NCBI RefSeq assembly: GCF_003334355.1
Contig: NZ_QOWP01000006.1
Source: Escherichia coli
GTDB taxonomy: Bacteria; Pseudomonadota; Gammaproteobacteria; Enterobacterales; Enterobacteriaceae
Strand: one strand, 5' to 3'
DNA length: 64,000 nt
Shown here one piece after another: positions 25,497-25,844 of this stretch (positions are counted from its first letter, which is position 1; the number at the start of each line of letters is the position of its first letter). The notes under the pieces are model-generated. The model saw nothing but the letters and a program-made list of their open reading frames with translations, was not told the DNA's origin and ran no database searches. Both the position numbers and the translations under genes were made by a program.

Positions 25497-25844
25497 TCAC
25501 TTCTTCTTGTTCATCATCGCTTTCAGGTCAGCGAATGGGTTGTACTTCGCTTCACCGACATCTTTCTGCGCATCTTCCCCTGCGATAACGGTCGTACCAT
25601 ACTGATCCGCTTCGGTATATTTCGAATGCTCATGATCGTGGCAATAGAGACACAACAATTCCCAGTTACTGCCATCTTCCGGGTTATTGGTATGGTCGTG
25701 ATCAATGTGGTGAACGGTAAGTTCACGCAGGTTGGAATAAACAAACTCGCGGGAACAGCGACCGCAGACCCACGGATAGATTTTTAATGCTTTTTCGCGA
25801 TAGCCGCTTTCTAACCGCGCATAGTTTTTTGGGATGATAGCCAT
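25497..25844 (-). CDS. yajD: HNH nuclease family protein YajD
   Basis: 115 aa with CGRC...HHIDHDHTNNPEDGSNWELLCLYCHDHEH HNH/zinc motif. Confidence 0.9.
   Translation of the reverse strand: MAIIPKNYARLESGYREKALKIYPWVCGRCSREFVYSNLRELTVHHIDHDHTNNPEDGSNWELLCLYCHDHEHSKYTEADQYGTTVIAGEDAQKDVGEAKYNPFADLKAMMNKKK

Follow-up and report, generated by a model that had tools for sequence, protein, structure and literature searches.

YajD of Escherichia coli, a conserved HNH protein encoded beside secDF: family features, genomic context and a probable nuclease role

The closest described counterparts of yajD, the Escherichia coli gene examined here, are the curated protein family that bears its name and a set of solved HNH (beta-beta-alpha-metal) proteins. 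The YajD family (NF008448 / PRK11295) includes WP_000974813.1, annotated in RefSeq as 'yajD: HNH nuclease YajD'. Among the solved proteins, Gme HNH from Geobacter metallireducens (PDB 4h9d) is a small stand-alone HNH protein deposited as a Mn-dependent nicking endonuclease, and the GVE2 HNH endonuclease (PDB 5h0o) is a phage protein. The human HNH domain of PDB 5mkw belongs to ZRANB3, a large multi-domain eukaryotic translocase, and Legionella DotN/IcmJ (PDB 5x1h, 5x42), 199 residues long, belongs to a type IV secretion coupling complex as one of its subunits. T4 endonuclease VII (PDB 1e7d/1e7l) is a domain-swapped dimeric phage Holliday-junction resolvase with extra helical domains. We analyzed yajD and its surroundings in a 64,000-nucleotide stretch of E. 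coli DNA (contig NZ_QOWP01000006.1; hereafter the window), in which the gene occupies 25497..25844 on the minus strand.

The feature in the window is an already known gene, the type member of a named and curated family and a predicted HNH nuclease. We consider it probable that yajD is a single-copy core gene whose product is an active, metal-dependent nuclease or nickase with one catalytic site and a role in the cell. No paper assigning YajD a function was found in the literature searched, and the family name records a prediction; the preliminary description of this DNA, which had called the substrate and role not established, agrees with that literature.

The HNH core of YajD and its flanking segments

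The open reading frame (ORF) list of the window gives yajD an ATG start, a TGA stop and 115 codons. The preliminary description had reported a 115-residue ORF containing CGRC...HHIDHDHTNNPEDGSNWELLCLYCHDHEH, and both the ORF and the quoted string were recovered in the translation, which is 100% identical to WP_000974813.1 from end to end and carries the same annotation. Because of this RefSeq identity, the single copy in 5425 of 5426 complete E. coli genomes, the thousands of homologs and a rate of nonsynonymous difference (pN) far below the synonymous one (pS), yajD is no chance ORF.

Membership in the HNH superfamily was established by profile matching. Pfam HNH PF01844 matches YajD residues 27-75 over model positions 1-47 of 47 (E 1.5e-12, 47.9 bits), and the NCBIfam YajD equivalog NF008448 scores 210.3 bits versus a cut-off of 87, with residues 2-113 aligned to profile positions 2-113 of 113. 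Fourteen PHROG HNH families match as well. An AlphaFold2 (AF2) model built from a 28-sequence alignment has a predicted local distance difference test score (pLDDT) of 90-94 over residues 21-70 and places two strands (42-46 and 61-65) ahead of a helix (66-81) in beta-beta-alpha topology. The best structural matches of this predicted fold are solved HNH domains; Foldseek returned the same set with weak statistics (E > 0.04). The HNH assignment made in the preliminary description is thereby upheld.

Conservation was profiled by aligning 309 family members and thinning them to 190 at <85% identity, with the catalytic positions set by the Pfam register. Among these 190 non-redundant relatives, H45 and H46, the latter at the general-base position, are 99% conserved, the presumed structural asparagine N60 is 98% conserved and the presumed metal ligand H69 is 92% conserved. 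The two pairs C27-x2-C30 and C65-x2-C68, a presumed Cys4 zinc site, are retained in 92-97%, and His51, Asn54, Asp57, Gly58, Trp61, Glu72 and His73 are likewise conserved. YajD thus combines a full-length profile match and a predicted beta-beta-alpha fold with the His/Asn/His positions and two CxxC pairs of the superfamily. The preliminary description had left room for a fold other than HNH or for missing catalytic residues; what was found is an HNH motif in which the catalytic and zinc positions are near-invariant.

The protein divides into four segments:

25767..25829, minus strand: N-terminal basic helix, residues 6-26, with G-Y-R-E-x-A-L-K-x-x-P-W (AF2, conservation, isoelectric point (pI))
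25620..25766, minus strand: zinc/HNH core, residues 27-75, with Cys27/30/65/68, His45, His46, Asn60 and His69
25548..25619, minus strand: variable acidic linker, residues 76-99, predicted disordered (pLDDT, alignment, pI)
25500..25547, minus strand: C-terminal motif, residues 100-115, K-Y-N-P-F-A-D-L-K-A-M-M-N-K-K-K, candidate docking peptide (alignments)

The four elements that mark the YajD equivalog, namely the GYRExALK helix, the HNH core, the variable linker and the PFAxL motif, are all present, with the family score above its cut-off from end to end. In the AF2 model the N-terminal helix covers residues 6-22 and packs ahead of the first CxxC; the segment has a pI of 9.7, and Y15, R16, A19, L20, K21, P24 and W25 are 82-94% conserved in the 190 relatives. 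At this segment the N-terminal extension is longer in more distant relatives. The linker has a pI of 4.05, its alignment columns are gap-rich and poorly conserved, and residues 81-100 have a pLDDT of 44-45.

Beyond this linker the sequence is conserved again. N102, P103, F104, A105 and L107 are invariant in 18 gammaproteobacterial orthologs ranging from Enterobacterales to Vibrio, Moritella and Thalassotalea. Over the 190 relatives P103 (83%), F104 (74%) and L107 (81%) are retained despite the varying linker before them, and relatives at only 40-60% identity still end in T-x-x-P-F-A-x-L-K-x-L-L-x-K-K; in some the tail reads Q-P-F-A-x-L. A short helix at 107-113 is predicted by AF2 with low confidence. 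Docking motifs typically show up as short conserved peptides that close a disordered linker, and the YajD tail looks like one. By inspection, the tail contains no QL[SD]LF, QLxLxL or APIM match. Its hydrophobic moment is 0.2-0.3 in E. coli YajD and about 0.5 in other members, and a MinD membrane-targeting sequence scores no higher than the tail, so this comparison is uninformative on a membrane-binding helix. The 115 residues hold no other domain and no membrane or secretion features.

No solved structure of any YajD family member emerged when the PDB was searched by sequence and by profile; these searches gave only the marginal match to T4 endonuclease VII and zinc fingers of C2H2 type that are spurious. 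In the first half of the core, the pattern C27-x2-C30-x14-H45/H46-x2-H49 (25764-25844; YajD residues 1-27, to 49) mimics C2H2 spacing, which is why SALL4 and ZBTB17 fingers appear in these searches. A C2H2 zinc finger in YajD was rejected as a coincidence of pattern, since the canonical zinc ligands are four cysteines.

Conservation, gene neighborhood and transcription unit

YajD was found exactly once in 5425 of the 5426 complete E. coli genomes. Against other genera, the gene shows 76-83% nucleotide identity that does not continue past the ORF borders, with a pN of 0.02-0.10 and a pS saturated at 0.70-0.89. Protein identity is 65-80% in Vibrio, Shewanella, Colwellia and Pseudoalteromonas. 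The family is compact, comprising 640 clusters at E <=0.001 and 291 at E <=1e-10 of 1.84 billion cluster representatives, and the named members encountered are from Gammaproteobacteria. On sequence comparison, yajD fits the picture of an old gene passed on vertically and held under strong purifying selection while its flanks were reshuffled. A recent horizontal transfer was rejected as the source of the varied contexts, as identity of 76-83% that stops at the ORF borders, together with saturated synonymous sites, indicates old divergence.

Three further origins or affiliations were considered and set aside. No full-length YajD homolog was present among the phage genomes searched; 23 phage records match the HNH core only (<=52% of the query, <60% identity), and a homing-type or phage HNH origin was rejected on these partial matches and the single copy in E. 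coli. The PADLOC ZorE models, about 282 positions long, score 25-27 bits and cover YajD residues 8-76 with their positions 201-269; membership in a defense system of the Zorya (ZorE) or McrA restriction type was rejected, as these matches cover the generic HNH core only and the neighbors, secF and tsx in E. coli and genes of metabolism, transport or regulation elsewhere, are not defense-island partner genes. An IscB/Cas9-type affiliation was rejected because the 20.3 bits of NF040563, whose cut-off is 175, come from the HNH segment only and YajD has no other domain.

The gene order in the window, which is E. coli chromosome, is thiL-nusB-ribH-ribD-nrdR, yajI-tsx on the other strand, and yajD-secF-secD-yajC-tgt-queA, so that tsx is convergent to yajD on one side and secF-secD-yajC-tgt-queA is co-oriented with it on the other. 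The two genes of most concern here are as follows:

25497..25844, minus strand: yajD coding sequence, YajD family HNH nuclease (ORF list; 100% identity to RefSeq; NCBIfam NF008448)
25972..26943, minus strand: secF, upstream same-strand neighbor (RefSeq, 323 amino acids (aa); tblastn mapping)

The ORF list gives secF 338 codons (start 26988, overlapping the end of secD) and RefSeq gives 323 (start 26943); the difference is a detail of ORF calling and no biological anomaly. A 701-nucleotide (nt) region around yajD is 100% identical to many complete E. coli genomes, where RefSeq labels tsx, yajD and secF. Only 3808 of the 5426 genomes cover >=80% of this region, so the tsx-yajD spacer differs among strains. 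With secF and tsx as neighbors, one fixed site in the species and phage matches confined to the core, the location of yajD in E. coli outside mobile elements and restriction cassettes, as the preliminary description had it, is borne out.

The neighborhood of yajD was then compared over 80 genome loci by mapping the E. coli neighbor proteins and clustering all flanking ORFs against one another, and the survey was extended with Pfam-labeled contexts of distant relatives; secF was sought within 6-10 kb. Only loci of Escherichia, Pseudocitrobacter, Kluyvera, Citrobacter koseri and Salmonella have it beside yajD, that of C. koseri having been looked up separately. About 70 other loci from Gammaproteobacteria, among them Pectobacterium, Serratia, Yersinia and Vibrio, showed no secF within that distance. 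Elsewhere yajD is a lone gene, usually with gaps of 40-400 nt on both sides, and its neighbors differ from genus to genus:

C. werkmanii (locus L019, 1-12342): ansA-pncA-chitinase / yajD / yeaC-msrB-gapA
Pluralibacter: nemA and speD
Pectobacterium: fadE and mtnK
Serratia: an acetyltransferase gene and a ParA-like gene
Yersinia: a class IV adenylate cyclase gene
Edwardsiella: a chemoreceptor gene and a porin gene
Enterobacter-like strain: yajD just downstream of an Rhs gene
Vibrio: a LysE exporter gene and an adenosine deaminase gene

At a further locus (L020) one immediate neighbor encodes a LysR-type regulator. No neighbor cluster recurs past genus level in the 80 loci, the largest recurring cluster comprising 11 loci. 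Within Enterobacterales the neighborhood differs in almost every genus (L010, L019, L024, L026, L034 and L035), with the protein 83-96% identical to that of E. coli. In one Chromatiales-like lineage (L088 8001-9787, L089-L091) the order is PLD / yajD homolog / arfB-like / NYN; the arfB-like gene encodes 148 aa with an RF-1 domain and a GGQ motif, and its start shares 4 nt with the yajD homolog. In another distant lineage the homolog adjoins recQ, near ligA, and further Chromatiales-like relatives have unrelated neighbors. Linkage to arfB or recQ was rejected as a functional clue, each being confined to one lineage with no recurrence among >100 loci. As judged from gene order, yajD has no conserved partner gene.

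Several loci deserve separate mention. In Pseudocitrobacter (L004 4500-6000, L006 550-2050) a same-strand ORF of 466 aa lies between secF and yajD and ends 39 nt before yajD, so the spacer can accept insertions. In Salmonella record CP082688.1 (L107 6786-6893) an Ldr-family type I toxin gene lies between yajD and tsx; the record is filed as a plasmid and has queA-tgt-yajC-secDF-yajD-tsx-nrdR-ribD-nusB-thiL, which makes it look like a mislabeled chromosome fragment. The Pantoea gene, 94% identical to that of E. coli, sits not on the chromosome but on large plasmids whose sizes run from about 160 kb up to 930 kb, most of them typed as non-mobilizable, including P. vagans pVag2 (L108 5001-5348) and 60 other plasmid records.

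The spacers on either side of yajD contain structured elements:

About 25921-25952, minus strand: intrinsic-terminator-like hairpin with U7 tract, ~75 nt before the yajD start (RNA fold)
25327..25353, no strand assigned: G+C-rich perfect palindrome, likely a bidirectional tsx/yajD terminator (terminator scan, RNA fold)
About 25384-25414 and 25456-25481, no strand assigned: two repetitive extragenic palindromic (REP)-like units in the tsx-yajD spacer (fold of 25321-25500, z -5.17)

The hairpin lies 3' of the secF stop (25972-25974) in a spacer of 127 nt and consists of a 13-bp stem, a 4-nt loop and the U7 tract (-24.5 kcal/mol, z -3.85), with none of 200 shuffles folding as well. Its support comes from folding, and the simple terminator pattern scan did not list it; the terminator hairpin that the preliminary description had placed between secF and yajD is real by this measure. 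C. koseri keeps the same hairpin and T-run, and Salmonella and Kluyvera have one at this place with a different stem sequence, which indicates that termination after secF is a conserved property. The palindrome on the other side directly follows the tsx stop and forms 11 pairs, 6 of them G-C, followed by a T-rich stretch on the plus strand and UUUU on the minus strand. A query that includes the REP-like units hits a median of 17 places per E. coli genome, and the yajD ORF alone hits one.

An intrinsic terminator downstream of yajD was reported from Term-seq and confirmed by in vitro transcription (PMC12207403), and native elongating transcript sequencing (NET-seq) detected a NusG-suppressed pause inside yajD (PMC10268239); yajD is therefore transcribed. 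A simple consensus scan gave no sigma-70-like promoter for yajD, and the cross-genus spacer alignment gave no shared -35/-10 elements. Most likely, yajD forms its own transcription unit, bounded upstream by the putative secF terminator and downstream by the one apparently shared with tsx, and as far as sequence alone can tell read-through across the secF-yajD hairpin is possible.

The preliminary description had spoken of a housekeeping operon context. What stands is that yajD follows secF in the same orientation. The functional meaning does not, because a putative terminator is present in every genus with the adjacency and the adjacency itself is confined to a few genera of Enterobacteriaceae. 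On this genomic comparison, the secDF position carries no functional information and is a lineage-specific accident.

Possible roles of YajD

How YajD would work can be outlined from its predicted fold. At 13 kDa, it would be a minimal stand-alone HNH protein with one active site, its fold probably stapled by a Cys4 zinc site (C27, C30, C65 and C68). H46 would serve as general base, H45 and H69 would act with the divalent metal and N60 would have a structural part, which together predict a catalytically active, divalent-metal-dependent nuclease. Because YajD has one predicted active site and no extra DNA-recognition domain, it would be expected to nick or cut particular DNA structures and not to act as a sequence-specific double-strand restriction enzyme. 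Its role would probably lie in cellular nucleic-acid maintenance, with the C-terminal P-F-A-x-L-x-x-[LM][LM]-K-K peptide probably tethering or regulating it through a partner encoded elsewhere. A more specific version, to which we assign only a slim chance, pictures a constitutive gammaproteobacterial genome-maintenance nickase that the PFAxL-x-x-LL-KK peptide brings to its site of action, perhaps the sliding clamp or another hub protein of replication or repair. It would draw on the intact active site, the disordered linker, the conserved tail, the ZRANB3 HNH domain as best structural match and the lack of an operon partner.

Several observations weigh against an active nuclease with a cellular role. 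Deletion of yajD alone in Salmonella gave no growth, stress or virulence phenotype (PMC3878590). In the same study, cbpA/yajD and ychN/yajD double mutants had lower H2O2 survival (PMC3878590), which fits weakly with a function in withstanding oxidative damage. Neither a biochemical report on any family member nor a solved structure was found in the literature and PDB searched. With a pI of 6.1 the whole protein is slightly acidic, an uncommon property in a DNA enzyme, and the choice between DNA and RNA as target is clouded by the lineage that couples the gene to arfB and an NYN RNase-type gene. The role given to the tail is pure conjecture, on which the hydrophobic moment is silent. DotN, finally, stands in the PDB as a secretion-complex component with no listed nuclease activity.

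YajD might instead be a non-catalytic zinc-ribbon or HNH-like adaptor or regulator that binds nucleic acid or protein without cutting, in the manner of degenerate HNH-like zinc modules. We regard this as unlikely, as a structural module would not need H46, N60 and H69 at 92-99% conservation with their surrounding His, Asp and Glu residues, and the full-length Pfam HNH match favors a canonical site. Action on RNA or the ribosome, for example mRNA or rRNA cleavage in translation quality control, is suggested by the Chromatiales-like lineage in which the homolog overlaps the ArfB-like GGQ gene ahead of an NYN-domain gene, and the lysine-rich C-terminus brings to mind tails that reach into channels of the ribosome. 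This linkage, however, comes from four near-identical contigs of a single lineage among >100 loci, another lineage has the gene beside recQ and near ligA, and all close structural matches of known substrate are DNA enzymes, which makes an RNA target improbable.

A selfish or defensive HNH element, be it a free-standing homing endonuclease, a toxin or a stray anti-phage component, would account for the weak matches to the Zorya ZorE HNH domain (27 bits) and to phage HNH families, for neighbors that vary by genus even within Enterobacterales with nucleotide homology stopping at the ORF borders, and for the plasmid-borne copies of Pantoea and the locus just downstream of an Rhs gene. Yet the gene is single-copy and essentially universal at one fixed E. 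coli site, and saturated synonymous sites with a protein 83-96% identical speak for old vertical descent under purifying selection. Nor is there an immunity, methylase or Zorya partner nearby or a full-length phage homolog, and the PADLOC matches are to the generic core only, so that such an origin seems very improbable. Cooperation with SecDF/YajC in protein translocation is scarcely credible. It would rest on the co-orientation with secF, 127 nt upstream in E. coli, an arrangement shared with Salmonella, C. koseri and Kluyvera, but a strong putative terminator separates the genes in all four genera and the adjacency is absent in about 70 loci, C. werkmanii, Pectobacterium, Serratia, Yersinia and Vibrio among them. 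In Pseudocitrobacter the 466-aa ORF intervenes, and YajD lacks membrane or secretion features. An active, single-site nuclease or nickase of the cell therefore remains the reading that we prefer.

YajD is an E. coli 'y-gene' that encodes a near-universal, single-copy, strongly constrained protein of nuclease type, and a function across the cell in handling DNA or RNA probably awaits discovery. The comparison removes the secDF neighborhood as a functional lead and leaves no operon partner that could be used in guilt by association; the C-terminal peptide and His46 offer two experimental handles. New here are the findings against a secDF link and against any conserved neighbor, the quantified protein constraint and the conserved C-terminal motif.

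YajD beside known HNH proteins

The analysis reveals no new kind of system, and YajD can be placed among described HNH proteins by fold. T4 endonuclease VII is a marginal match, and its domain-swapped dimer and extra helical domains have no counterpart in YajD. DotN is a close structural match; YajD keeps the catalytic residues, and no such secretion system surrounds yajD in E. coli K-12-type genomes. The best structural match is the ZRANB3 HNH domain at 19% identity, which in ZRANB3 is part of a large multi-domain protein, whereas YajD is a single small domain. The layout of an HNH domain followed by a short C-terminal hub-binding peptide is ZRANB3-like, although the YajD tail has no APIM match on inspection. 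Gme HNH and the GVE2 endonuclease share 16-19% identity with YajD and went undetected by sequence search; the GYRExALK helix and the PFAxL motif of YajD are not reported here for either, and YajD is the product of a chromosomal core gene whereas GVE2 HNH is a phage protein. Gme HNH, a stand-alone domain like YajD and one of its structural matches, was deposited as a nicking enzyme, which supports the view that YajD would nick its substrate.

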